A stretch of 64,000 nt of DNA. It comes from Acetivibrionales bacterium. GTDB lineage: Bacteria; Bacillota; Clostridia; DSM-8532. Position 1 is the first letter of the stretch. The number at the start of each line of letters is the position of its first letter. The notes beneath the pieces are model-generated. The model searched no databases. It was not told the DNA's origin and saw only the letters and a list, made by a program, of their open reading frames with translations. The position numbers and the translations under genes are program-made. The stretch spans positions 28,275-92,274 of the forward strand of contig JBMNTI010000001.1 of NCBI GenBank assembly GCA_050945655.1. The letters run 5' to 3'. This document shows positions 2,147-61,821 of this stretch, in pieces.

Positions 2147-2400
2147 GAGGCTTTATCCGCGTTTCAGCAGCAAACTGGGTGAATACTAATCTTAACACCA
2201 ATAGGAACCGCTGGCTATGTCATACGTGAAGCTTAGCAGGATTGCGCAGCGGCTGCGAATAATTTCCGGATGAAATTCATGAGCGGCACGCATGACATCG
2301 GCTAAAGATTCCATAGTCGTACTTGCAAATATCTGGTTATGATCCATGCATTTGCAATAATGTGTTTACCAGTTTGCGGACGCAAGGTTTTTGCTTCCGC
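2147..2400. repeat. Mosaic repeat island inside the spoIIIA operon (contains module C at 2201..2317)
   Basis: ATAGGAACCGCTGG...GCAGGATTGCGCAGCGGCTGCGAATAATTTCCGGATGAAATTCATGAGCGGCACGCATGACATCGGCTAAAGATTCCATAGT matches 24202..24317 and the reverse complement of 22455..22573. The leading AGGCTTTATCCGC also occurs at 42399. Confidence 0.85.
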
Positions 2401-4170: not shown

Positions 4171-5310
4171 TTATTTGTAGGAAATAGAATCATAGACCCT
4201 ATCATTTTTAATGATATTATACTTGGGTTCTAAGCCCCAGCTCTCTATGACATTATTGTAGAATTCTTCACCGGCCTTAAATTCCATTGTGCTTTTGACT
4301 ATATCTTTTACATCATCAAATGTTGTTCTTCCATCAATCTTTGCCACATAAATAAAATAGTTGGTTTCAATAATGTCCGTATCTCCCGGTTTATTATCAA
4401 AAGCCCATTCTATAAAGTCCCATTCCAGGTAGTACTCATACATGGAATCCTGACTGTATGTGATACTGGCTTTACCAGGGACACTTGCCCCGTCCCCTTC
4501 CTGAGAAGAATCAGCCTTATCCTCGGTATATTCGGATATGATTTCATCCATCGATCCGCCTTCCTGTATTTTCTTCAAGGCTTCCTCAGCTTTTTCTTTC
4601 TTTCCGGCTATTTCTTCCTCTGATAGTGGGGTTCCTGTTTCATTAAATTTATAAAGGGTTACATAACTGACATCTATCTTGTCGTATAGCTTTGCATCTG
4701 TGTTATATTCGGCTTTCAGTTGCTCGTCGGTATAAGCTTCCGGTTGATAGTTTTCATCTAAATACTTTCTCTTGTATTTTTCTATTACACTAAACATTTC
4801 GTAAATGCCCTGAAGCTCGGCAACAGTTGTTTTATATGCCTCCTTAAATTGTTTTTCGGTTAATTCCCCCTGTATTGAAGGCATTATTGCCGCAATCTGT
4901 TCCTTAATTTCGGAATCGATTTTCATGCCTGACTCCTGTGCCTTAATATACTGGATCATAAATTCTTTTGAATAATTCAGAGCTTCCCGCTTGGCTGCTT
5001 CATACGGATCCTGACCGTCTGCGATTGTTGTCCAAAATTTATCCTTTTCTTCCTGGGTTACAAGCCCTTCCTCGACTTCGGCAGCACTCATCTGCTTCTG
5101 TAAGAAAAACTGATATACGGTCTTTGAGATTCTGTGGCCATCGACAGTTGCCACATAACTTCCCGAATCAATCAAATAATATACTATGGCTGCAAGGAGT
5201 ATGATAACCACAGTAATAATAATCTTCGTTCTGTTTTTTTCACGCTGAGTTCTTATCAATTTCTTTTTTTTATGTGTTTTAGCCTTGTTTATAGATTCTT
5301 TCTTATGCAT
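4171..5310 (-). CDS. Membrane-anchored SurA-N-terminal/PpiD-PrsA-like chaperone protein (no clear parvulin domain seen)
   Basis: Basic N-terminus, a single TM (IIITVVIILLAAIVYYLI), then a SurA_N-like segment (VATVDGHRISKTVYQFFL). It sits directly downstream of mfd, as in many Clostridia. The start is set at the second ATG (MHKKES) because AAGGA lies 8 nt upstream; the ORF-track start at 5394 has no RBS. Confidence 0.55.
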   Translation of the reverse strand: MHKKESINKAKTHKKKKLIRTQREKNRTKIIITVVIILLAAIVYYLIDSGSYVATVDGHRISKTVYQFFLQKQMSAAEVEEGLVTQEEKDKFWTTIADGQDPYEAAKREALNYSKEFMIQYIKAQESGMKIDSEIKEQIAAIMPSIQGELTEKQFKEAYKTTVAELQGIYEMFSVIEKYKRKYLDENYQPEAYTDEQLKAEYNTDAKLYDKIDVSYVTLYKFNETGTPLSEEEIAGKKEKAEEALKKIQEGGSMDEIISEYTEDKADSSQEGDGASVPGKASITYSQDSMYEYYLEWDFIEWAFDNKPGDTDIIETNYFIYVAKIDGRTTFDDVKDIVKSTMEFKAGEEFYNNVIESWGLEPKYNIIKNDRVYDSISYK

Positions 5311-5407: not shown

Positions 5408-8400
5408 TCAATACTTCAACTTCAATTTTTGCAGCTCTTGTAATAGAATCTTAATATTTTCAATAACTTCGTGGGGTTTTTGGTTCTTTGCCTGAAGAGA
5501 TAAATATGGTTGTTTGCCTGCACTGAACATTAATTTACCCTTCCATTTATTCATCAGATCGCCGATTCTTTCCAAGGGCAATCCGCCTTGTTCGGCAAAA
5601 ATCAGGAGCACCATTTCTTCCTTCTGTTTAACGGCAGAGAATCCTAAATTGGACGCAAGATTCTTGATATAAGCTATCTCAATAAGATAATTAGTTTCTT
5701 CGGGTATATCGCCATACCGGTCAATAAGTTCGTCTTTAATATCCAGTATATCATCATCGGTCTCTATAGCAGATATGGTTCTGTACATATCAATTCTCTG
5801 CTCCTCATCGTTAATATAGGAAGCGTCAATATATGCACCGGCAATCAGCTCCACCGTTGTATCGGCGGCTCTGCCTGCGGGCGCCTCTCCCTTAAGTTCG
5901 GCAACAGTTTCGTCCAGCAGTTTCAAATACATATCATATCCGACAGATTCCATATGCCCGTGCTGTTCGGCGCCCAGTATGTTTCCGGCACCTCTTATCT
6001 GCAAGTCCCTCATTGCTATTTTAAAGCCTGAACCAAACTCGGTAAATTCCCTAATAGCTCTTAGCCGCTTTTCTGCAGTCTCATTTAAAACTTTGTCCCT
6101 TTTATATGTCAAATATGCGTATGCCAGACGATTTGACCTGCCTACCCTTCCACGAAGCTGATAAAGCTGGGCAAGACCTAATCTGTCCGAATCCTCCACG
6201 ATGATCGTGTTCACATTAGGCATATCGATACCTGACTCAATAATGGTTGTGCACACCAATACATCAAAATCTTTATCCAAAAAGGATTGTATTACCCGCT
6301 CCAGCTCTCTTTCCCCCATTTGTCCGTGGGCATAACCGATTCTGGCTTCAGGCACCAAAGCCTGTACTTGTGACATTTTAGCGTGTATACCTCTTACTCT
6401 GTTAAACAGATAAAACACTTGACCGCCCCTGGCCAGTTCCCTGTTAACAGCGTTTTGAATAATATCCTCCCTGTACTCGACAACATAGGTTTGAACCGGG
6501 TATCTATGCTCGGGGGGATCCTCCAGAATGCTTATATCCCTTATACCTGAAAGAGACATACTAAGAGTCCTCGGTATAGGAGTGGCCGAAAGGGTGAGTA
6601 TATCGACCTTGGGATATCGCAGCTTTATTGTTTCCTTATGGGCAACACCAAAGCGCTGCTCCTCATCTATCACCAAAAGCCCCAGATCCTTAAATCTGAC
6701 CGATGGCCCGAGTATCATGTGAGTGCCCACGATAATATCTATTCTCCCGCTTTTTAAATCTCTTACTATAGCCTTTTGTTCGGCATCCGTTTTAAATCTG
6801 CTCAACATTTCAACCTTAATCGGGAATCCTGAAAACCTTTTTTTAAATGTTTCGAAATGCTGTGCCGCCAGAACTGTCGTAGGAACCAGAAATGCAGCCT
6901 GCTTGCTGTCCATTGCCGCCTTAAAAGCCGCTCGAATAGCCACCTCGGTCTTGCCGTAACCCACATCTCCGCACAGCAGACGATCCATTATAGACTCCGA
7001 TTCCATATCTGCTTTGATTTCCGTAACACATCTTAACTGGTCGGGAGTTTCCTCATAGTCAAACATATCTTCAAATTGTTTTTGCCACACAGTATCGGGT
7101 GAAAACGCGTAACCTTTTGTATTCCGGCGTTCAGCCTGTAATCGGATTAAATCGGCTGCCAGGGTCTTTAAGGATTCTTTAACCCGTGCTTTCGCTTTTA
7201 TCCATTCGGTGCCGCCAAGTTTATTTATTCGTGGTTCCCGACCTTCGGCGCCAATATATTTTTGGATAAGATCCATGCCGGTTGTGGGGATAAAAAGAGT
7301 CCCTCCGTCCCTATAGCTTATCTTAAGATAGTCTTTTCTTATCCCTTCAACCACCAGCTGCTCTATTCCGTTATATACTCCGATACCATGAGCCTGGTGA
7401 ACCACATAATCTCCTACCTTTAAATCGGTAAAGGAGGAAATCCGCCTGCCCTTTTCTGTGGTTCTCCTTCTGGTTTGTCCGGATCTTATTCCGGATATAT
7501 CGCTTTCAGCAAGAATAACAAGTTTTTCATCTTTATAGACAAAGCCTGTCTGTAAACGACCAAAAACAACCGTTACAAAAGCGCCGTCCGGCCACAATCC
7601 ATCTTCACCGGCTTTTGTTGCCGCAACACCCTTTTCCCTTAACTCTTCAATAAACCTGTCTATCCTGTCCTCGGATGCACAGAGAAAAGCTACTCTGAAT
7701 CCATCTTTCAGCCATGCCTTTATATCATCGCCGACTAAATCCAATTTGCCGTTATAGGGGCTGACTCCGGAGCCTCTTATTTCGATTTTTTCGGCTTCTG
7801 TTCCCGTTAATAAATAATCGCCATCTAAAGATTCGAGAATAATGATGCTGTTGTTTTCAGCTTTTCCCCTGAGCGTTTCCATGTCCAAGAGCATATTAAA
7901 GGTATCTTTCAGGATCATACCTTTTCCCATGAGGGTTTCACACAAGCCGACCAAGGCCTCCTGCTCGTTTTCCATGTGTTCCCTGGTTCTTCGCGACTCT
8001 TCAAAAAAGACCAGATGTCTTCCTTTCAGATAGTCAAAAAGACTTGCTTTTTTCTCTATCAGATATGGAATAAATTTATCCACACCGGTAAAATAGTGGC
8101 TGTCCTGGAGTTTCTCTACATATCCTTCCATATTTTTAGTCAGAACCGGACGAATCTCAGTAGAAACCAGCGGCAGGGTTTCATCAATTGCTTTCCGTAT
8201 TCTGTCTGCTATTGATTCAATATCGGATCGGGCATAAACTATTTCTCTGGCAGGATATATATCAATCTCTTCACACCGATCCACCGACCGTTGACTTTCC
8301 TCAGAGAACCAACGCATTGAATCAATTTCAATATCAAAAAACTCAATACGGCAGGGCATGTGTGTATTGACAGGGTATATATCAAGAATACCGCCCCGCC

Positions 8401-8920
8401 TGGCATACTGACCTCTGCCTTCTACCTTTTCCTCCCTGTTATAGCCTAACTCCAGAAGCTTTTCTTCTAAATCGTTCCAGTCAACAATGTCGCCCGGCTT
8501 AAGGTTAATAAGGTTCTTTTTAAAGGTGTCCGGGGGCATGATAAAATGCATGAGTGCTTCGGCTGAGGTTACTATGAACATATAATCATCATCGAGAATA
8601 CGCGTAAGTGAAGAAATCCTGTCGTGAGTCTGCTCGAAGCTTCTTGCTTCCACATCGTAAAGCATTATTTCACGATTTGGTAAATAAACCGCCTTATCAT
8701 CTGTCAGATATGATAAATCAAGGTAAGCCTGTCGTGCCTGCATCTCATTCCATGCCACATACAGACCTTTTAATCCTGTCAGCTCAGACACCGTTTTAGC
8801 TAAATGCCGTTTTTGGGAATCAGAAACTCCATGAACAACGGTATTTACTCCCTTTTGCGCCGAATCTGCAAGATGTTTGATTTTTGGGGATTCTTTTATT
8901 GCATTGATAATAAGTTTCAT
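5408..8920 (-). CDS. mfd: Transcription-repair coupling factor
   Basis: 1170 aa with a UvrB-homology N-terminus, a CarD-like domain (GDYVVHQAHGIGVY), an SF2 helicase (GDVGYGKTEVA, DEEQRFG) and a TRG motif region. Confidence 0.97.
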   Translation of the reverse strand: MKLIINAIKESPKIKHLADSAQKGVNTVVHGVSDSQKRHLAKTVSELTGLKGLYVAWNEMQARQAYLDLSYLTDDKAVYLPNREIMLYDVEARSFEQTHDRISSLTRILDDDYMFIVTSAEALMHFIMPPDTFKKNLINLKPGDIVDWNDLEEKLLELGYNREEKVEGRGQYARRGGILDIYPVNTHMPCRIEFFDIEIDSMRWFSEESQRSVDRCEEIDIYPAREIVYARSDIESIADRIRKAIDETLPLVSTEIRPVLTKNMEGYVEKLQDSHYFTGVDKFIPYLIEKKASLFDYLKGRHLVFFEESRRTREHMENEQEALVGLCETLMGKGMILKDTFNMLLDMETLRGKAENNSIIILESLDGDYLLTGTEAEKIEIRGSGVSPYNGKLDLVGDDIKAWLKDGFRVAFLCASEDRIDRFIEELREKGVAATKAGEDGLWPDGAFVTVVFGRLQTGFVYKDEKLVILAESDISGIRSGQTRRRTTEKGRRISSFTDLKVGDYVVHQAHGIGVYNGIEQLVVEGIRKDYLKISYRDGGTLFIPTTGMDLIQKYIGAEGREPRINKLGGTEWIKAKARVKESLKTLAADLIRLQAERRNTKGYAFSPDTVWQKQFEDMFDYEETPDQLRCVTEIKADMESESIMDRLLCGDVGYGKTEVAIRAAFKAAMDSKQAAFLVPTTVLAAQHFETFKKRFSGFPIKVEMLSRFKTDAEQKAIVRDLKSGRIDIIVGTHMILGPSVRFKDLGLLVIDEEQRFGVAHKETIKLRYPKVDILTLSATPIPRTLSMSLSGIRDISILEDPPEHRYPVQTYVVEYREDIIQNAVNRELARGGQVFYLFNRVRGIHAKMSQVQALVPEARIGYAHGQMGERELERVIQSFLDKDFDVLVCTTIIESGIDMPNVNTIIVEDSDRLGLAQLYQLRGRVGRSNRLAYAYLTYKRDKVLNETAEKRLRAIREFTEFGSGFKIAMRDLQIRGAGNILGAEQHGHMESVGYDMYLKLLDETVAELKGEAPAGRAADTTVELIAGAYIDASYINDEEQRIDMYRTISAIETDDDILDIKDELIDRYGDIPEETNYLIEIAYIKNLASNLGFSAVKQKEEMVLLIFAEQGGLPLERIGDLMNKWKGKLMFSAGKQPYLSLQAKNQKPHEVIENIKILLQELQKLKLKY

Positions 8921-9006
8921 ATCCTTCTTCTAGCGTGCGGGAGCAGTGTTAACTGCGAACGCCTCTAAGCACCCTCGTTCAACCTCAAACCTCTTATTTC
9001 TTAGAT

Positions 9007-9062
9007 CTCACATTTCACTTCTCACATCTCACTTATCACATCTCACTTATCACATCTCACTT
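9007..9062. repeat. 4 x 14-bp tandem repeat (CTCACATCTCACTT-like)
   Basis: Four contiguous units: CTCACATTTCACTT, CTCACATCTCACTT, ATCACATCTCACTT, ATCACATCTCACTT. A single related unit (CTCACATCTCACT) occurs at about 44008. Confidence 0.9.
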
Positions 9063-9072
9063 CTATAAGTAC

Positions 9073-9243
9073 CATGGCTCCGGCTTGCGCTTTGCCATGA
9101 CCCCGCGTGCGGTCTTTGGTTCACGGTCGCTCAATCTTTTCTAATATAGTAACCGTACGGTGGTCGCCCTCTAAAGCGGCCGGCTTATCTTGTCGAGAAC
9201 CTTGCACCTGCCTCATTACGTTAACATCAATAGGAATCGCTGT
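9073..9243 (+). repeat. Module-B repeat
   Basis: CATGGCTCCGGCTTGCGC...GGTCGCTCAATCTTTTCTAATATAGTA...CGGTGGTCGCCCTCTAAAGCGGCCGGCTTATCTTGTCGAGAACCTTGCACC...AATAGGAATCGCTG aligns along its length with 24044..24213. A partial copy lies at 43972..44000. Confidence 0.85.
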
Positions 9244-9246
9244 CCA

Positions 9247-9400
9247 CAGCCTGTGCGAAAACTACAAACAGTATTAAACCGATGCAAGTCTAGCGGCTAT
9301 AGCTGACATTTGTCATCCTGAGCGTCAACGAAGGATCTTCTGCGGTTTAGCGCTCCATCTCCAACATCCGGTTTCCAGTCGCGCTCGCTACGCAATCCAT
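9247..9400 (-). mobile_element. Family-A element, truncated (one TIR, cassette and half of the core)
   Basis: CAGCCTGTGCGAAAAC..., then the cassette, then GCGCTCCATCTCCAACATCCGGTTTCCAGTCGCGCTCGCTACGCAATCCATGCTTAGC. It ends 8 nt before the stop of the M50 protease gene. Confidence 0.8.
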
Positions 9401-9407
9401 GCTTAGC

Positions 9408-10127
9408 TTAAAATGCACCCTGCATTATTATCCAGAATATGTTGTCAGCGTCTATGCCCAATATAGTTTTTACCGTTAATGCCATACTGCGCAAAACAGG
9501 CGCGGCAACCGCCCTGATAAATGAGCTTAAGAAATCGTTGGGCGCCAATAAAACAATGGCCAAAAAGGCAAGTCCTATAAATGGTTCATAGCGCGCAAAC
9601 CTGTAAAAAGCCTCCTCAGGAATATATGCCGATATAAGTCTGGATCCGTCTAACGGCGGCACAGGTATCATATTAAATATTGCCAGATTTATGTTTACAG
9701 AAACAAGTATAAAAAAGAACAGGGAAACATATTGAAGAATCTGAAACATTCTTATGTCTGCAATCACAATAATACCAACTTCAATCAGCTTGGCTATGAT
9801 ACCTCCGATAAATATACTTATAAAGCCAAGCAAAATGTTTGACATAGGACCCGCCAGCGCCACCAGAATAGTCCCCGCCCTGCGGTTTTTCAGGTTATTA
9901 AAGTTAACCGGAACCGGCTTAGCCCAGCCAAAACCCACAGTATACATCATTAATACGCCTACAAGATCCAAATGCTTAAACGGGTTCAGGGTAAGCCTTC
10001 CGCTATTCTTAGCCGTCGGGTCACCTAATCTGTACGCCACCCATCCATGGGCAAGTTCATGCACGGGTAAAGCTATAAATAAGATCGGTGTCATAAATAA
10101 TATGTCCAGAATAGAAAAAGAATCCAT
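9408..10127 (-). CDS. Site-2 protease family (M50) zinc metalloprotease
   Basis: HELAHG zinc motif, a polytopic membrane protein, and the downstream PVPPLDGS motif. The ORF-track start at 10157 is a TTG without an RBS; the ATG at 10127 (MDSFSILD) is preferred. Confidence 0.8.
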   Translation of the reverse strand: MDSFSILDILFMTPILFIALPVHELAHGWVAYRLGDPTAKNSGRLTLNPFKHLDLVGVLMMYTVGFGWAKPVPVNFNNLKNRRAGTILVALAGPMSNILLGFISIFIGGIIAKLIEVGIIVIADIRMFQILQYVSLFFFILVSVNINLAIFNMIPVPPLDGSRLISAYIPEEAFYRFARYEPFIGLAFLAIVLLAPNDFLSSFIRAVAAPVLRSMALTVKTILGIDADNIFWIIMQGAF

Positions 10128-10172
10128 ATCTAACCTATCTTTCAGAGTCCTATACAAAAAATATCTGAATGG

Positions 10173-10538
10173 TTACTTCAGCAAATTTAATATAGGATCG
10201 GTAAAAACAATTATTCCTATTATAACAGAGACAAATGCACTTACCAATACGGCAGCTGCGCTTATATCCTTTACTTTCTTTGCCTGTTCCGAGTATTCTG
10301 AAGTAACCATATCGGTAAGCATTTCAATCACGGTATTAATTAGCTCGCATATAAAAACCAATCCAATTGCCGATAATACGGCCAGCCAGCGCAGCATGTC
10401 GAGTTTTAATAGCATTCCCAAAATTATAGCCATTATTGCCGCGCCAATATGTATTTTCATATTTCGCTCTGCAACTATGGCTTGACAGAATCCGTCAAAG
10501 GCATTCTTAAAACTTTTGGCTATACTTTTATTTTTCAT
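10173..10538 (-). CDS. dgkA: Diacylglycerol/undecaprenol kinase (DgkA family)
   Basis: 121-aa, 3-TM protein (FKNAFDGF...ERNMKIH...NTVIE). It sits directly after ybeY, as in Bacillus yqfG-dgkA. Confidence 0.85.
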   Translation of the reverse strand: MKNKSIAKSFKNAFDGFCQAIVAERNMKIHIGAAIMAIILGMLLKLDMLRWLAVLSAIGLVFICELINTVIEMLTDMVTSEYSEQAKKVKDISAAAVLVSAFVSVIIGIIVFTDPILNLLK

Positions 10539-22356: not shown

Positions 22357-22670
22357 TATGCCAGGTGACGGTTCTGCTGTCTAATGAGAAACCTTGTCCC
22401 CTGTTTTACTACGTTATCTAGTTGTGCAAGGTTTTTCATTAGTAGCCTTAGGGTACTACGGAACCTCTTTAGCCGATATCATACGTGCCGATCAGGAATT
22501 TCATCCGGAAATTATTCGCGGCTGCTACGCAATCCTGCTCCGCTTCACGCATGACATCGGCAGCAGTTCCTATCATGTTAAACATTGTGAAGCGAGAACC
22601 TTGCACCAGCACAACCTGGTAACTAACATCATTAAGTGGGCGCAAGGTTTTTATCAGGCAGAAGAACCAT
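22357..22670. repeat. Mosaic repeat island downstream of gpr (module C in minus orientation at 22455..22573 plus GAGAACCTTGCAC/GTGCAAGGTT hairpin modules)
   Basis: It is the reverse complement of the 24202..24420 island (GACGGTTCTGCTGTCT..., module C). The hairpin arms GAGAAACCTTG/CAAGGTTTTTC and GAGAACCTTGC/GCAAGGTTTTT can be seen directly. A module-B tail fragment follows at 22845..22893. Confidence 0.85.
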
Positions 22671-22771
22671 CAGACTGTGCGAAATTTTTTATATATGCAG
22701 GTAATAATATTTGATTATGCAATCGTAAATAAGCGGCGTGGTTGCTGCGATTTAAAGCGAAGCATGGATTG
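22671..22771 (+). mobile_element. Family-A element, 5' half only
   Basis: CAGACTGTGCGAAATT...AATAAGCGGCGTGGTTGCTGCGATTTAAAGCGAAGCATGGATTG, after which similarity is lost. Confidence 0.8.
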
Positions 22772-22906
22772 TGGACGTAACCCTGTTTATGAGAGAGCAA
22801 AACAGCCAAGAAACAGAGCAATCAACATTTCGGTTTATCCCACTGAGAACCCTGCGCCCGCCTCATAACGTTAAACATTTGAAGGAACCCTGGCGCTATC
22901 TCAGAT

Positions 22907-23908
22907 CTAATGTATAAACCGATCAACGTCATTGGGACCGATATTTTCATGTAACGCCATATTAATACCGTTTGCCACAAGCCTTGACAAATAATCGACA
23001 ATATCATCAGTATCTTTAGGAGTTACAATCAAATTTCCCGAATAAGGCTCCAGCAGTTCTATTATCATACGATATTTTTCTTCCCGGTCAATTCCCGACA
23101 GCATTTTATAAAACTCACTGCCTGAGCCTGCCTGATCCATCATACTATCCATCACAAGATCAAGGACATCGCTTGCCATTGTTGCCGCATCCACAACAGT
23201 AGGTATACCAATTGCTATAACCGGCACTCCCAGAGATTCTTTGTTAAGTGCCAGTCTTTTATTTCCCACCCCTGATCCGGGGGCAATTCCCGTATTTGCC
23301 AGCTGGATTGATGAATTGACCCTTTTCATGCTTCTGGATGCCAATGCATCAATGGCAATCACCAATGCAGGTTTTACATTATCAACTATACCTTTGATTA
23401 TATGCCCTGTCTCAATCCCCGTTATACCAAGAACACCGGGGGATATTGCACATACAGGCCTCTCGGTTTCATTCACTTCTTTCGGAAGGTATTCATATAT
23501 GTGTCTTGTTACCAGTACCGACTCCGCTACTTTTGGTCCGAGAGCATCGGCCGTTACATTCCAGTTGCCCAAACCTACAACTAAGACAGTATCTTTGTTG
23601 TTCAGATGAATAAGACTTTCCAGTTCCCTTGCAAGCATCCTGCAGGATTTCTCATAAAGATCCCTGCTCTTTTCTTTTACTCTGGGAATATCCAATGTTA
23701 TATAACTTCCTGCCGGTTTTCCCACCTTCTGCTCCCCCTCCGGTGTGTCCACATGTACTCTGGTAATTGCTACATCGCTGTCTCCATCTTTCTCAACTCT
23801 TATTCCTTCTCCAAAATCTACGCCCTGGGTTCTGGTCTGTGTACCGGCGCCTACCACTCTCGATTCATCAGCCATATCAGTTCTAATGACACGTGCGTAT
23901 TTATCCAT
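22907..23908 (-). CDS. gpr: Germination protease (GPR endopeptidase)
   Basis: 333 aa with an N-terminal IRTDMA pro-region and GLGNWNVTADALGP / GIAPGSGVGN motifs characteristic of the A25 GPR family. Confidence 0.9.
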   Translation of the reverse strand: MDKYARVIRTDMADESRVVGAGTQTRTQGVDFGEGIRVEKDGDSDVAITRVHVDTPEGEQKVGKPAGSYITLDIPRVKEKSRDLYEKSCRMLARELESLIHLNNKDTVLVVGLGNWNVTADALGPKVAESVLVTRHIYEYLPKEVNETERPVCAISPGVLGITGIETGHIIKGIVDNVKPALVIAIDALASRSMKRVNSSIQLANTGIAPGSGVGNKRLALNKESLGVPVIAIGIPTVVDAATMASDVLDLVMDSMMDQAGSGSEFYKMLSGIDREEKYRMIIELLEPYSGNLIVTPKDTDDIVDYLSRLVANGINMALHENIGPNDVDRFIH

Positions 23909-23989: not shown

Positions 23990-24420
23990 ATTAGGTGTTA
24001 GATGTTAGATTGCAGACGCAAAGAGTGCCTGGAAACGTTCGAAATGGCTCCGTCTTCGCTCCGCCATGTCCCGACGTGTGGTCTTTTGCTCACGGGTCGC
24101 TCAATCTTTTCCAATATAGTATATCATGCGGTGGTCGCTCTTTGAAGCGGCCGGCTTATCTTGTCGAGAACCTTGCACCCGCCTTAAAACGTTATACTGT
24201 GGAAGGAACCGCTGTCGAAGTCATGCGTGAATCGGAGCAGGATTGCGTAGCGGCCGCGAATAATTTCCGGATGAAATTCCTGAGCGGCACGCATGATCTC
24301 TACTAAAGGTTCCAGAGTTGTACGATGGAACAGTTCTAATGTCTTATGAGAAACTTTGCACTCGCTCTATTATGTCAACAAGTGAGCGGGCGCAAGGGTC
24401 AGACAGCAGAACCGTCCCCA
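23990..24420. repeat. Mosaic repeat island upstream of gpr (module B 24044..24200, module C 24202..24317, hairpin module to 24420)
   Basis: Direct sequence matches to 9073..9243 (B), to 2201..2317 (C), and to the reverse complement of 22357..22573. Confidence 0.88.
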
Positions 24421-42410: not shown

Positions 42411-42623
42411 CAGACTATGCAAACTGTTTTAATTTGCAGGTTATAATATTTGATTATGCAACCGTTAATAAGCGGCGTGCTTGCTGCGATTTAAAGCGAA
42501 GCATAGATTGCGTAGCGAGCGCGACTGGAAACAGGATGTTGGAGATGGAGCGCTAAATCGCAGCAATCAACAGCCGCTAAGCTTGCATAGATTTGATACT
42601 ATTGATAATTTTCACACAATCTG
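42411..42623 (+). mobile_element. Family-A MITE-like element, short form, full length
   Basis: Degenerate terminal inverted repeats, CAGACTATGCAAACTG ... ATTTTCACACAATCTG. The conserved core is AATAAGCGGCGTG(G/C)TTGCTGCGATTTAAAGCGAAGCAT(G/A)GATTGCGTAGCGAGCGCGACTGGAAACAGGATGTTGGAGATGGAGCGCTAAATCGCAG. Confidence 0.85.
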
Positions 42624-43708: not shown

Positions 43709-43954
43709 CAGGCTGTGCGAAAACTATTTTAATATGTAGGTTATAATAATTGATTATGAAATCATAAATAAGCGGCGTGGTTGCTGCGATTTAAAGCGAA
43801 GCATGGATTGCGTAGCGAGCGCGACTGGAAACAGGATGTTGGAACGGAGTGCTAAATCGCAGAAGATCCTTCGCTGACGCTCAGGATGACAAATGTCAGA
43901 TACAGCCGCTAAACTTTCATAGATTTAATCGATGGATGGTTTTCGCACAGCCTG
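43709..43954 (+). mobile_element. Family-A MITE-like element, long form (with 40-nt cassette), full length
   Basis: TIRs CAGGCTGTGCGAAAAC ... GTTTTCGCACAGCCTG (perfect 16/16). Cassette AAGATCCTTCGCTGACGCTCAGGATGACAAATGTCAGATA at 43863..43902. Confidence 0.9.
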
Positions 43955-44070
43955 AAGGTTCAGATGTCTTAACAGCTTATCTTGTCGAGAACCTTGCACC
44001 TATAAACTCTCACATCTCACTCGTATCTAACCCGTGCGGCACGCATGATATCGGCTAAAGGTTCCATAAA
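43955..44070. repeat. Fragments of modules B, tandem unit and C adjoining the 43709 MITE
   Basis: CAGCTTATCTTGTCGAGAACCTTGCACC (B), CTCACATCTCACT (tandem unit) and GTGCGGCACGCATGATATCGGCTAAAGGTTCCAT (C 3' end). Confidence 0.75.
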
Positions 44071-49926: not shown

Positions 49927-50141
49927 CAGACTGTGCGAAAACTATTAATAGTATTAAATCTATGCAAGTTTAGCGGCTGTAGATTGCTGCGTTTTAGCGC
50001 TCCATCTCCAACATCCGGTTTCCAGTCGCGCTCGCTACGCAATCCTTGCTTCGCTTTAAATCGCAGCAACCACGCCGCTTATTTGCGATTGCATAATCAA
50101 GTATTATAACCTACATGTTAAAACAGTTTTCGCACAGTCTG
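49927..50141 (-). mobile_element. Family-A MITE-like element, short form, full length, inverted orientation
   Basis: Perfect TIRs CAGACTGTGCGAAAAC ... GTTTTCGCACAGTCTG. The core is the reverse complement of the 42411 and 43709 copies. Confidence 0.9.
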
Positions 50142-50150
50142 TCTGGTTCA

Positions 50151-51179
50151 TCAAAGCATCCCCATGAATTGGAGAATTTTTTGTCCTATATTATTATTCA
50201 GCAGCATCAATCCCAGTCCGGTATACACAATGCCGATCATTAACAGCCCGGGAAGACCGACTAACATGCCTTTTGCGCTGCCCCGAACCATTTCCGGCTT
50301 TTCAAAAGTCTTTTTTGTCATTGCCCTGAGTATGATAATCAACCCGAATATTACTATAACACTAAACAGAAGGACACCGGCGAACACTGCCGCCATTACT
50401 GCCAGAAGCTGTTCCAATGTCATATTGTATTGCTCGGCAAGTTGTAAAAACTCCGGAATGTCGAATGGGTCTGTCACTACCTGGGTGCCCTGTGCCTCCG
50501 AACCGGCCATAAAGTTTGCAAGAAGCGTCAATAAACCGTTATTACTGAAATGAAGAATCATTCCGTTAAAAATTGAGCCGGTACGATATACCACATATGC
50601 TGCCAAAAACCCGATCAAGGTTTGTGCTGCCAAACGTTGAAAGTCAAAATGAAACAATCCGAATAAAAGGCCGCTTAAAAAAATCGACCATCCTGCACCG
50701 ATCCTTTCGATTCCTCTTTGTATCATTCCCCGGAAGAGCAATTCCTCGCACACCGCTGGTAGTACTCCAACTAATAACAGCGATACAATAAGATTCTTAG
50801 ACATGAGTTCGGTTACAGCTCCTCCGATATATACTCTCCCGAAAATACCCTTAACAGACAAAAGGCCGATAAATCCGGCGCAAAATCCCGCAACGACCAT
50901 AACCGGGCTTATAACAATCATAAGAAACACTTCAGAAAGTTTCGGGGCTTTAAGACGGAATGTTTCTTTAATGTTATATTTTCTGATAACTGCTAATAAA
51001 AATGGCGGAGCAACTAAGAATAGAATTTGGGAGAGTACAAGCTTGACACCTATGGGAATGTTAAACGTTCCCATATACCGGGAGGCATATACATAGTAAA
51101 TAGCAACAAAAGTATACAGCAAGCCTGAATCAAAAGGCACCGGCAGCTTTTTTTGTTCATTGATATCAACTGTTTCCAT
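50151..51179 (-). CDS. CPBP family intramembrane glutamic endopeptidase (CAAX protease-like)
   Basis: EELLFRG, FGLFH and HFSNN motifs within a polytopic membrane protein. Confidence 0.85.
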   Translation of the reverse strand: METVDINEQKKLPVPFDSGLLYTFVAIYYVYASRYMGTFNIPIGVKLVLSQILFLVAPPFLLAVIRKYNIKETFRLKAPKLSEVFLMIVISPVMVVAGFCAGFIGLLSVKGIFGRVYIGGAVTELMSKNLIVSLLLVGVLPAVCEELLFRGMIQRGIERIGAGWSIFLSGLLFGLFHFDFQRLAAQTLIGFLAAYVVYRTGSIFNGMILHFSNNGLLTLLANFMAGSEAQGTQVVTDPFDIPEFLQLAEQYNMTLEQLLAVMAAVFAGVLLFSVIVIFGLIIILRAMTKKTFEKPEMVRGSAKGMLVGLPGLLMIGIVYTGLGLMLLNNNIGQKILQFMGML

Positions 51180-51197
51180 ATTATCCTCTCATATTTT

Positions 51198-51806
51198 TTA
51201 CTTTATCTTTTTTACTTTTGAGGGCGGCCAAATAATGAATGATGCTTTACCTTCAAAAGAATGTATGCTTACGCATCCAAAATGGCGACTGTCCTTTGAC
51301 ATTTCTCTGTTATCACCCATAACAAAGAAATGATTATCCGGCACCGTAAGAGGGTACTCCATATTGCCTTTGGATGTCTTACCTAAAACATATGCCTTAT
51401 TCTCTATTTCTCCGTTAACGTAGACTTTACCGTCGTCATCAATTTCTATGATATCCCCTGGAAGCCCGATAATACGCTTAACATAACGTTCATTGGTAAA
51501 TTTGTCTCTTCCGGTCAATGAGTCTCTTAAATCTGTAAGTTTTACGCCGATGGCATCCCATATACCGTGATATTCTTTCCCGCCGGCCAAAAACAGTACG
51601 ATATCACCTCTGGCAAATTCATGGGGCTTATTGGCAAAGCGGTTATAATATACAATGTCGCCTTCAATCAATGTATTCCTCATAGAAATCTGGTTTACAG
51701 TGGCTGTGGTGAATACCGTCAGATTAAGGCCAAACACGATAGTAAATATCACAACTATTGTGAGCAGTATACCAACTATTTCCCTAACTATTTTTCCTTT
51801 TCGCAT
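51198..51806 (-). CDS. lepB: Signal peptidase I
   Basis: S26 family motifs: N-terminal TM, SMRNTL (Ser box), KRIIGLPGD (Lys box), GDNREMSKDSR. Confidence 0.92.
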   Translation of the reverse strand: MRKGKIVREIVGILLTIVVIFTIVFGLNLTVFTTATVNQISMRNTLIEGDIVYYNRFANKPHEFARGDIVLFLAGGKEYHGIWDAIGVKLTDLRDSLTGRDKFTNERYVKRIIGLPGDIIEIDDDGKVYVNGEIENKAYVLGKTSKGNMEYPLTVPDNHFFVMGDNREMSKDSRHFGCVSIHSFEGKASFIIWPPSKVKKIK

Positions 51807-51848
51807 TCAAAAACGCTCCAATTAATTTACTTTAAAACTTATTATTAA

Positions 51849-51857
51849 ATTATATCA
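51849..51857 (-). promoter_or_regulatory. Extended -10 element (TGATATAAT) upstream of lepB, contributed by the end of family-D repeat
   Basis: Same 12-mer as at 26691, at a similar distance to the start codon. Confidence 0.4.
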
Positions 51858-51931
51858 TAAGCTCAGCCATAGCAATATCTTGCTATGTGCCGTCGCAAAC
51901 GCATCGGATGCGCGGTAGACGAGCTGCTTAA

Positions 51932-52178
51932 CAAACTGTGCGAAAACTGTTTAACATGAAGGTTATAATATTTGATTATGCAATTGTAAATAAGCGGCGT
52001 GGTTGCTGCGATATAAAGCGAAGCATGGATTTAGTAGCGAGCGCGACTAGAAACCGGATGTTGGAGATGGAGCGCTAAATCGCAGAAGATCCTTCGCTGA
52101 CGCTCAGAATGACAAATGTCAGCTACAGCCGCTAAATTTGCATACATTTAATACTATTGATAGTTTTCGCAAAGTCTG
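51932..52178 (+). mobile_element. Family-A MITE-like element, long form, inserted inside a family-D repeat and flanked by TTAA/TTAA
   Basis: TIRs CAAACTGTGCGAAAAC ... GTTTTCGCAAAGTCTG. TTAA lies at 51928..51931 and at 52179..52182. The paralogous uninterrupted site at 26772..26775 has a single TTAA. Confidence 0.9.
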
Positions 52179-53774: not shown

Positions 53775-53869
53775 CAGACTGTGCGAGAACTGTTTTAAAA
53801 TGCAAGTTATAGTATTTGATCAAGCAATCGTAAATAAGCGGCGTGGTTGCTGCGATTTAAAGCGAAGCA
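53775..53869 (+). mobile_element. Family-A element, 5' part only, abutting a module-C fragment
   Basis: CAGACTGTGCGAGAAC...AATAAGCGGCGTGGTTGCTGCGATTTAAAGCGAAGCA joined directly to CTAAAGGTTCCATAGTCATACGATG, the module-C 3' end. Confidence 0.78.
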
Positions 53870-53902
53870 ACTAAAGGTTCCATAGTCATACGATGTAACT
53901 GT

Positions 53903-56479: not shown

Positions 56480-57128
56480 CTATAAAACTTAGTAATTCAA
56501 CAGGATGGCAACAATCCGAGTAAATTTTGCGGCTTAGGTCAGGCAGGTTTTCCCCGCCGGATACCGAAACGTCGCCGTTTCGGAGGTTTCCCTTTAATTC
56601 CTGCGTTGAAAGGTTTCCCTTATCAAAGCCTGATCACCACTTAGTCCACACTGCAATCCCCGGATTGCTTCATTATCAAACAGCCTAGGGGTTTTCCCCG
56701 AGAGCCTGTGCCTACTCTAGCCTCTTTTGCACCGTTGGTTTCAAGCGACAATATTGCTTATGTACCGGCCAGTACATAAACACGTGATTCACTATCCTCC
56801 AGACGGCACTCAAGGCAGGCTACACTGTCCACAGCATCAAAAGTGATACCGCGCTACAGGTTCATTCCCTTATCGTAGTCAAGATTTTTATCGTTTACAC
56901 GGGGCAATCTGTCTTCCACAATTAAGGGTCTCCACGGTAAAGGGGTCATTTCCCGCATGCCATTGCAGGCTGCCCCTAAACCTTAACTCCCAGCACCAAC
57001 CCATCACTGGGCGTAACAAGCCGGCACAAGGAACTTCATCGATGTGCCCTTTAACGGATTTTTAGGCCCGTCTTCGAAGCAGGCAGTACTGACTAGGATA
57101 CTGCGCCATCCTGATATTTTTACTATGA
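56480..57128 (-). ncRNA. OLE: OLE (ornate, large, extremophilic) RNA; ends approximate
   Basis: 695-nt gap with no credible ORF on either strand, richer in G+C than the surrounding intergenic DNA. It is packed with hairpins when read on the minus strand (GGGGAAAACCCC, CCGAAACG-GCGA-CGTTTCGG, GCAATCCGGGGATTGC, ATGTAC-TGGCCG-GTACAT) and has repeated GGGAAACC strings. Synteny nusB-xseA-xseB-ispA-[RNA]-oapA-dxs-tlyA matches published OLE loci. A TTGCAT-17-TATAAT promoter lies at 57135..57163. Not verified against the covariance model. Confidence 0.8.
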
Positions 57129-60485: not shown

Positions 60486-60733
60486 CAAACTGCGCGGAAT
60501 TATCAATAGTATTAAATCTATACAAGTTTAGCGGCTATAGCCGACATTTGTCATCCTGAGCGTCAGCGAAGGATCTTCGGCGATTTAGCGCTCCATCTCC
60601 AACATCCGGTTTCCAGTCGCGCTCGCTACGCAATCCATGCTTCGCTTTAAATCGCAGCAAGCACGCCGCTTATTTACGGTTGCATAATCAAATATTATAA
60701 CCTGGATGTTAAAAACAATTTTCGCACAGTCTG
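60486..60733 (-). mobile_element. Family-A MITE-like element, long form, inverted orientation, flanked by TATA/TATA
   Basis: TIRs CAAACTGCGCGGAATT (degenerate) ... ATTTTCGCACAGTCTG. The cassette is present in reverse complement (GACATTTGTCATCCTGAGCGTCAGCGAAGGATCTT). Confidence 0.88.
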
Positions 60734-61737: not shown

Positions 61738-61744
61738 GGGTATT

Positions 61745-61818
61745 CAGTTAAACAAGTTTAGCGGCTATAACTAAAAATCGAAGCAGCCACGCCACTTAAT
61801 TATGATTCATAATTAAAC
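61745..61818 (-). mobile_element. Family-A element, internally deleted and degenerate remnant
   Basis: CAGTTAAACAAGTTTAGCGGCTATAAC...CGAAGCAGCCACGCCACTTAATT matches the two ends of the reverse-oriented core with the middle missing. Confidence 0.55.
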
Positions 61819-61821
61819 ATC

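Follow-up and report, generated by a model that had tools for sequence, protein, structure and literature searches.

A probable family of non-autonomous DNA transposons with a common core on alternative ends in an uncultured Acetivibrionales lineage

The DNA analyzed in this study, hereafter the window, was a 64 kb stretch of an Acetivibrionales (Clostridia) metagenome-assembled genome (MAG) from a biogas-reactor setting, and the element in question was a family of short interspersed repeats, about 215 or 247 bp long and bounded by 16-bp terminal inverted repeats (TIRs), whose flagged copy lies at 49927-50141. A sequence-only reading of the window had placed these repeats in housekeeping surroundings, and a Pfam scan of 30 flanking or larger open reading frames (ORFs) agreed: all were housekeeping, including gatC, GatB, a GGDEF protein, SpoU- and FtsJ-type methyltransferases, NusB, UvrC, Rnf subunits, sporulation proteins and Gpr. 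Protein look-ups showed that LeuRS, Dxs and an S41 peptidase were encoded in the window as well. No transposase gene was present among the 30 ORFs scanned (about nine large ORFs lay outside the scan), in keeping with the earlier claim that the window holds none.

A blastn search with the 49927-50141 copy, a repeat finder and an nhmmer profile built on eight full copies all returned one and the same set of nine copies and fragments in the window (Table 1). These were the nine that had been listed before, at essentially the same coordinates, and blastn and nhmmer reproduced their division into five full copies, three truncated copies and one internally deleted remnant, in both orientations. The TIR 16-mer CAGACTGTGCGAAAAC, scanned with up to three mismatches, recovered the same copies and gave 12 matches in the window against 0.39 expected, a number that none of 100 shuffles attained. 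The fragment beginning at 9247 was present as described, while its end moved from 9400 to 9414; its right side is deleted, and it abuts the stop codon of the ORF at 9408..10157. The density of about one copy per 7 kb is near that of Correia and repetitive extragenic palindromic (REP) elements, and hence not exceptional.

Every copy in the window sat between ORFs, as had been stated. The copy at 42411 occupies the spacer between gatC and the GGDEF gene, the flagged copy is separated by 10 bp from the stop codon of a CAAX-protease gene, and the copy at 51932 lies in the divergent spacer between a signal peptidase gene and a transglutaminase-like gene. The longest ORF called for nusB (TTG start at 60506) reached 20 nt into the copy at 60486; the Pfam NusB match began only at residue 35, and the true start of nusB is therefore probably downstream and the overlap an artefact of ORF calling.

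The anatomy of the repeats was that of a small mobile element. The flagged copy starts with CAGACTGTGCGAAAAC and finishes with its exact reverse complement, whereas the TIRs of the other full window copies carry one to three mismatches, which bore out the perfect or near-perfect inverted ends reported earlier. In the alignment of the copies, what the 247-bp form has beyond the 215-bp form was an insert of 32-37 bp, CTGACATTTGTCATCCTGAGCGTCAGCGAAGGATC(TT), and the full window elements span 213-248 bp. As had been noted, no ORF was common to the copies; the only short frame, of 17 codons on the reverse strand, was disrupted by indels in variants, and a coding potential of the core was rejected on that ground. 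On either strand, the whole element was predicted to fold into a single long hairpin (minimum free energies of -71 and -80 kcal/mol, z of about -6.3 against shuffles), and the internal pairing of CTGCGATTTAGCG with CGCTTTAAATCGCAG proposed before was predicted for single sequences and for the alignment alike.

Evidence for transposition came from target-site duplications (TSDs), from a reconstructed empty site and from occupancy in relatives. The two 4-bp duplications noticed in the window, TTAA at the 51932 copy and TATA at the 60486 copy, were real, and the related loci described below added TCGA at locus L009 and GCGT at L019. Perfect 4-bp direct repeats were thus found at four of the seven elements that have both ends terminating in CAGACTGTGCGAAAAC (type A), and the chance of at least four such perfect duplications was about 8e-9; the flanks of the remaining three were equal at two or three of four positions. 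At L009, a type-A element sits within a copy of another palindromic repeat, family 2, and removal of the element together with one TCGA left an unbroken family-2 sequence, colinear with window 24206-24322. A presence/absence comparison with relatives, which the sequence-only reading had proposed, showed that occupancy differed at syntenic loci whose flanks were about 80% identical. The window sites at 51932 and 9247 are filled and their counterparts in L006 and L010 are not; L010 in turn holds a full copy at 4927-5107 where the window has at most a remnant of 30 nt (the possible tenth copy in Table 1); the site in L115 is filled and its counterpart in L097 is empty; and the L006 site syntenic to the flagged copy keeps only a decayed left-arm remnant. 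The truncated copy at 53775 was orthologous to a full copy at L006 3208-3421, both with the derived sequence CGAGAAC in the TIR. At two intergenic sites (L029/L053 and L079/L112), the element was reversed in one species relative to another, which means that it was inserted more than once or was inverted across its arms. A search for strain-level empty sites by exact-protein look-up of a neighboring gene returned only one identical Logan contig bounded by two repeats.

[quoted passage not shown] The TIRs, the missing ORF, the 4-bp duplications, the empty site and the differences in occupancy support the earlier view of a non-autonomous, MITE-like element. We conclude that the feature is real and the element is a non-autonomous transposon, and we put the probability that the window repeats form a MITE family resident in an uncultured Acetivibrionales lineage at roughly three in four. 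The enzyme would be a DDE-type transposase whose gene lies elsewhere in the genome, a class suggested by the TIRs and the fixed length of the TSD; it would bind the 16-bp TIRs and make a 4-bp staggered cut at the target, leaving the 4-bp duplication.

Table 1. Repeat copies, end types, modules and other features of the window and of related loci
Feature	Location	Strand	Description
Truncated long-form copy	9247..9414	+	left TIR (1 mismatch), left arm, 37-bp GTCATCCTGAGCG module, first ~75 nt of core
Possible tenth remnant, low confidence	10150..10180	+	~30 nt of left arm
Truncated copy	22671..22773	-	right TIR, right arm, last ~42 nt of core; adjoins family-2 copy 22460-22571
Full short-form copy, 213 bp	42411..42623	-	degenerate TIRs, one with 3 mismatches, the other with a 2-nt deletion
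Full long-form copy, 246 bp	43709..43954	-	1 mismatch per TIR; flanks ACGG/AAGG, 3 of 4 positions equal
Full short-form copy (flagged), 215 bp	49927..50141	+	perfect 16-bp TIRs; flanks TCGA/TCTG, 2 of 4 positions equal
Full long-form copy, 247 bp	51932..52178	-	perfect TTAA target-site duplication
Truncated copy	53775..53870	-	right TIR, right arm, last 36 nt of core; spacer between tlyA-like gene and dxs
Full long-form copy, 248 bp	60486..60733	+	perfect TATA target-site duplication; left TIR degenerate; spacer between nusB and a methyltransferase gene
Internally deleted remnant	~61742..61820	+	left-arm part (AAGTTTAGCGGCTATAAC) fused to right stem and arm (TAAAAATCGAAGCAGCCACGCCACTTAATTATGATTCATAAT)
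End type A	window and MAG JAAYNX		arms terminate in CAGACTGTGCGAAAAC
End type B	mainly MAG JAAYTR		arms terminate in (TT)AAGAATAATGCGAACTA
End type C			short arms GTATACAAG... / ...TTGTACAAGC between direct copies of module TGTCATCCTGAGCG...CGAAGGATCTT
Short module, window	9303-9339, 43863-43899, 52086-52122, 60543-60577		
Short module, examples in related loci	L004 5938-5990, L115 4250-4430		
Family 2, palindromic repeat, ~115-120 nt	window 2203-2322, 22460-22571, 24200-24322; L009 2691-2790		ends GGAACCnnTGTCGAnGTCATGCGTG / CACGCATGACATCGGCnnnGGTTCC
Family-2 fragments	window 44036-44066, ~53870-53900		
Family 3, conserved sequence, ~165 nt	window 9074-9223, 24030-24196; fragment 43975-44000		two copies, 85% identical
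Full-length OLE (ornate large extremophilic) RNA	56489-57125	-	Rfam, 525 bits

Relatives of the element were examined in a set of 100 loci (759 kb), made up of MAG and metagenome contigs picked for containing the core. A 20-mer from the core had matches at 30 loci, in six species-level MAGs labeled Clostridiaceae, Ruminiclostridium or Bacillota, and a second, apical 20-mer matched 69 loci in metagenomes, most of which belonged to a single Joint Genome Institute (JGI) series. At about 25 of these 69 loci, as read from the tables, the match lay at the end of the contig or locus, a pattern that an assembly-breaking, high-copy repeat would leave. In about 100 instances with flanks, spread over the six other MAGs and the biogas metagenomes, the constant part was a core of about 105 nt, AGCGGCTGTAG-CTGCGATTTAGCGCTCC...GCTTCGCTTTAAATCGCAGCAGCCACGCCGCTTA, itself a hairpin.

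The comparison revealed a mosaicism that the sequence-only reading had not remarked upon, namely one core with alternative ends, a separate module and nesting with other repeat families. The palindromic core, of about 105-140 nt, was common to sub-families with different termini, and at least three sets of ends were distinguished (types A to C, Table 1). Hybrid elements in L013 and L109 combined a left end of type B with a right end of type A, and internal variants were also found, L019 with its apex replaced and L021 with a 154-bp internal deletion. The type-B inverted repeat reached at least 12 nt past the 17-mer used here (CAAGCTCATATT / AAGAATAATGCGAAC ... / AATATGAGCTTG; L064 1201-1439, also L014 and L017), and either the true terminus of type B lies further out or type B is nested in another palindrome.

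The insert of the window long form proved to be a short module in its own right, GTCATCCTGAGCG...GAAGGATC, of 32-40 bp, which sits at varying positions. This palindromic module, TGTCATCCTGAGCG(n)GCG(TAGCGGAGT)CGAAGGATCTT, gave 141 matches in the related loci, often in tandem or inverted clusters and also at a distance from any MITE core, whereas within the window it occurred only inside long-form copies. In its behavior the module resembles a REP-type unit, apparently inserted at different places in different MITE sub-families. Repeats coding for 'CHPERSE/VILSEAKDL' that resemble it seem to occur in many other phyla.

Several observations weigh against a transposon family of this kind as the full account of the repeats. 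Many cores had no recognizable type-A or type-B terminus, and part of the spread may have used another mechanism or other ends. The five full window paralogs were 94.5% identical over the core, about 87% over the arms and 78-90% over the TIRs; the TIRs are thus the least and the core the most conserved part, the reverse of what an actively transposing family would show, and this middle of about 100 bp, more conserved than the ends, is what is unusual about the family. In the orthologous pair formed by the 53775 copy and its L006 counterpart, the core part showed no difference over its 36 positions, identity in the arm was about 85%, and the adjacent intergenic DNA could not be aligned, which also fits functional constraint. 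Finally, the window, the related loci, plasmids and viral contigs yielded no autonomous partner. No pair of TIRs with the spacing of an insertion sequence (IS), 0.6-3 kb, was present in the window or the 759 kb of related loci at up to three or four mismatches; blastn searches of plasmids with the element and with its left arm were negative or gave noise; and in viral contigs the core 20-mer had no match, while the TIR 16-mer matched only unrelated coding sequences. The related contigs had been chosen for containing the core, so that IS copies would mostly be missing from them, making them a poor place to look for the parent IS.

The pattern of decay also bears on the age of the family. Recent or ongoing amplification, as had been proposed, was not upheld, as identity in the arms is no more than about 87%, decay is strongest in the TIRs, remnants are abundant, and the 53775 insertion is older than the split between species whose flanking genes are now about 80% identical. 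The family is not young, and most copies in the window, with TIRs and TSDs in partial decay, are old and appear immobile. Differences within the core were recurrent alternative blocks (ATCT/ATTT/GGGC, CCAG/CTAG, CTCGC/CCCGC and ACGCAATCC/ACTTAGATCC), and in the four-gamete test 116 of 153 informative pairs of core sites showed all four gametes, within 110 nt. Both results point to frequent exchange between copies. Gene conversion or recombination over a large pool of cores would keep the core more uniform than the arms, and gene conversion, favored here over selection, is the most likely cause of that uniformity. In a closer pair of species (L020/L066), the core was about 88% identical and no better conserved than the flanks.

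Placement relative to genes was examined as a further indication of host function. A long ORF was overlapped by only 1 of 94 non-redundant instances. Genes were called on both sides of 46 instances, of which 30 lay between co-directional genes, 14 in convergent and 2 in divergent spacers, and the scarcity of copies in promoter-only spacers resembles the placement of REP elements (PMC3184786). The deficit in divergent spacers fits selection against promoter disruption, or a role of a symmetric hairpin at gene 3' ends; purifying selection against disruption of genes and promoters would leave copies intergenic and mostly beside gene 3' ends. Among the co-directional cases, 19 elements ran along the orientation of the genes and 11 opposite to it, a difference that was not significant (p = 0.2), and this absence of an orientation bias argues against a strand-specific RNA. 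A transcribed copy would give a long mRNA hairpin in whichever orientation it lay.

These data allow the MITE reading to be weighed against its rivals, the foremost of which holds that the core of about 105 nt is a host-selected functional module that was spread by, or recruited, several transposon ends and whose copies are maintained by selection. The module might be a structured RNA that affects the stability, processing or termination of mRNAs in cis, or else a DNA site to which a protein binds. We regard this explanation as unlikely, although the gradient of identity from core to TIRs, the unchanged core at the orthologous 53775 site, the use of one core with at least three end types and the strong shortage of copies in divergent promoter regions all speak for such a module, and RNAalifold showed the stem CTGCGATTTAGCG/CGCTTTAAATCGCAG to be retained in nearly all of 50 distinct cores. 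In the same alignment (mean identity 91%), only 1 of 18 pairs was compensatory and the covariation term was about zero, in cores too alike for covariation to be a proper test of structure. No full copy matched Rfam 15 even at E <= 10, and nothing besides the OLE RNA reached the gathering threshold over the window. In consensus scans, the copies had no terminator-like site, and their promoter-like hexamers were weak and pointed inward. The balanced orientation relative to flanking transcription, the unexceptional core of the L020/L066 pair and the many truncated or internally deleted copies with no sign of replacement also speak against selection, and the recurrent, allele-like blocks with their four-gamete pairs fit gene conversion without any function. 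A specific version, in which the core is a functional cassette (a DNA site bound by a protein, or a structured RNA) that the lineage spread through its intergenic DNA on at least three end sets and that selection keeps uniform, is rather a long shot. If it were true, the core, the GTCATCCTGAGCG module, family 2 and family 3 (a further conserved sequence, below) would form a genome-wide cis-regulatory or nucleoid-organizing system in an uncultured Clostridia clade.

It is also conceivable, but very improbable, that the repeats are a mosaic of palindromes like REPs and bacterial interspersed mosaic elements (BIMEs), spread by a REP-associated tyrosine transposase (RAYT; HUH class, IS200/IS605-like) or by recombination, with the TIRs as mere outer hairpin arms. 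The modular make-up, above all the 30-40-nt palindromic module in its variable combinations, would suit this explanation, as would the nesting with other palindromic families, the placement beside the 3' ends of genes and in spacers between convergent genes, and the type-C cores, which lie between direct copies of the short module and not between type-A or type-B TIRs. The type-A elements, however, have fixed 4-bp target duplications and a reconstructed empty site, and HUH/Y1 transposition of the IS200/IS605 type makes no target duplication. The elements measure 215-247 bp with 16-bp terminal repeats, in contrast to the 20-40 nt of GC-rich REPs, and no RAYT gene was seen, though a genome-wide search for one was not possible. 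Possession of TIRs and TSDs therefore sets the element apart from REPs and BIMEs. An artefact of MAG assembly or binning, with chimeric joins or collapsed repeats, has next to no probability. The source is indeed a MAG, and many related contigs end within the repeat; yet the element recurred in independent assemblies of separate projects (NCBI MAGs and JGI metagenomes), a Logan contig was 100% identical to window 50066-51993, the copies differ by 5-20% and so are not collapsed, and they occupy syntenic housekeeping contexts in related species. The MITE reading is thus the one that we retain.

As to the parent of this MITE family, the sequence-only reading had guessed at an IS5-like element. 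The motif GTGCGAA and the 4-bp length of the duplication are indeed shared, but of the four intact TSDs (TTAA, TATA, TCGA and GCGT) only TTAA fits the 4-bp YTAR target that the IS5 subgroup duplicates. The heptamer lies 6-7 nt from the TIR tip, one base deeper in the MITE than in IS5, whose end GGAAGGTGCGAATAAG we confirmed in E. coli beside an annotated IS5-family transposase gene, and the type-B end also holds ATGCGAAC / GTTCGCAT. The tips themselves differ, with CAGACT... in the MITE and GGAAG... in IS5, and tblastn of the E. coli IS5 transposase against the related loci returned nothing below E = 0.7. Duplications of 4 bp are also made by other DDE families, namely IS701, IS1380, ISH3 and some IS3/IS21 elements. 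Parentage by IS5, weakly based on these likenesses of the ends, is a lead and not a finding.

Other repeats accompany the MITE. Family 2 gave 20 blast matches over the related loci and has the segment CGCTACGCAATCC(A)TGCTyCGCTT in common with the MITE core. Some of its copies contain a frame of 40-45 codons (MEPLVEIMRAAQEFHPEIIRGRYAILL...), in which substitutions are mostly non-synonymous and which is frameshifted in one copy. Family 3 was found each time directly beside a MITE or family-2 copy and, on the minus strand, just upstream of a 1170-aa ORF (5408..8920) and of the germination protease gene (22907..23908). It had no Rfam match and could be an unrecognized leader or non-coding RNA, or a further repeat module. 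Degenerate tandem repeats (CACATCTCACTTAT / CACTTCTCACAT) run through about 8990-9060, in the long spacer that lies upstream of this 1170-aa ORF, and CTCACATC runs like those border elements in L004. In L008, a GC-rich, structured-looking stretch at about 760-930 (caccgggtattacccggcacctttgccctgtggagcccggactttcctcgtacgagg...) lies beside a decayed MITE arm at about 1000-1066. The OLE RNA of the window is in its expected isoprenoid/dxs neighborhood, with MITE copies 2.6 kb and 3.4 kb away on its two sides.

The findings add an undescribed MITE family from the Clostridia, otherwise ordinary in kind. The family takes up a large share of the intergenic DNA in this biogas-reactor lineage, and, as many contigs end inside the repeat, it accounts for the fragmentation of the MAGs of this lineage. 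Its insertion sites can serve as markers that separate related populations, and the presence of one core on several ends offers a natural experiment on gene conversion versus selection in the uniformity of dispersed repeats. Were the core functional, it would be a case of a bacterial regulatory sequence spread by transposons.

In the literature, we found no description of the MITE repeat or of the short module, the sole match to a 13-mer being an unrelated cell-biology paper, and the Clostridia are absent from a 2024 review of prokaryotic MITEs (PMC10969869). Among known systems, the Correia elements (CREE/NEMIS) of Neisseria are likewise small, TIR-bounded, ORF-less and able to form a long hairpin; they too are dense and intergenic, lie in both orientations, show length variants by internal insertion and deletion, and are polymorphic in occupancy among relatives (PMC3184786, PMC10969869). 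They differ in having about 104-157 bp, 26-bp TIRs and a TA duplication, against 215/247 bp, 16-bp TIRs and a 4-bp duplication here, and they belong to another host phylum and share no sequence similarity with our element. For Correia elements, experiments have demonstrated promoters, an IHF site and processing by RNase III, whereas the Clostridia element is known here from its sequence alone. The BOX, RUP and SPRITE repeats of pneumococci and the BIMEs of E. coli resemble it in the varying order of their modular units and in an apparent past burst followed by dormancy, and the pneumococcal families also insert into each other and cluster in the same spacers (PMC10969869). None of these is similar to it in sequence; RUP, which is associated with IS630-Spn1, duplicates TA, in contrast to the 4-bp TSD of the Clostridia element, and REPs and BIMEs, which share the bias to gene 3' ends and convergent spacers, have neither TIRs nor TSDs and are associated with RAYT enzymes. 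The element comes closest to the Correia elements in behavior and to BOX/RUP/SPRITE and BIMEs in its modular, nested organization, an undescribed MITE family of a well-known kind whose mildly unusual trait is a common core on alternative ends.

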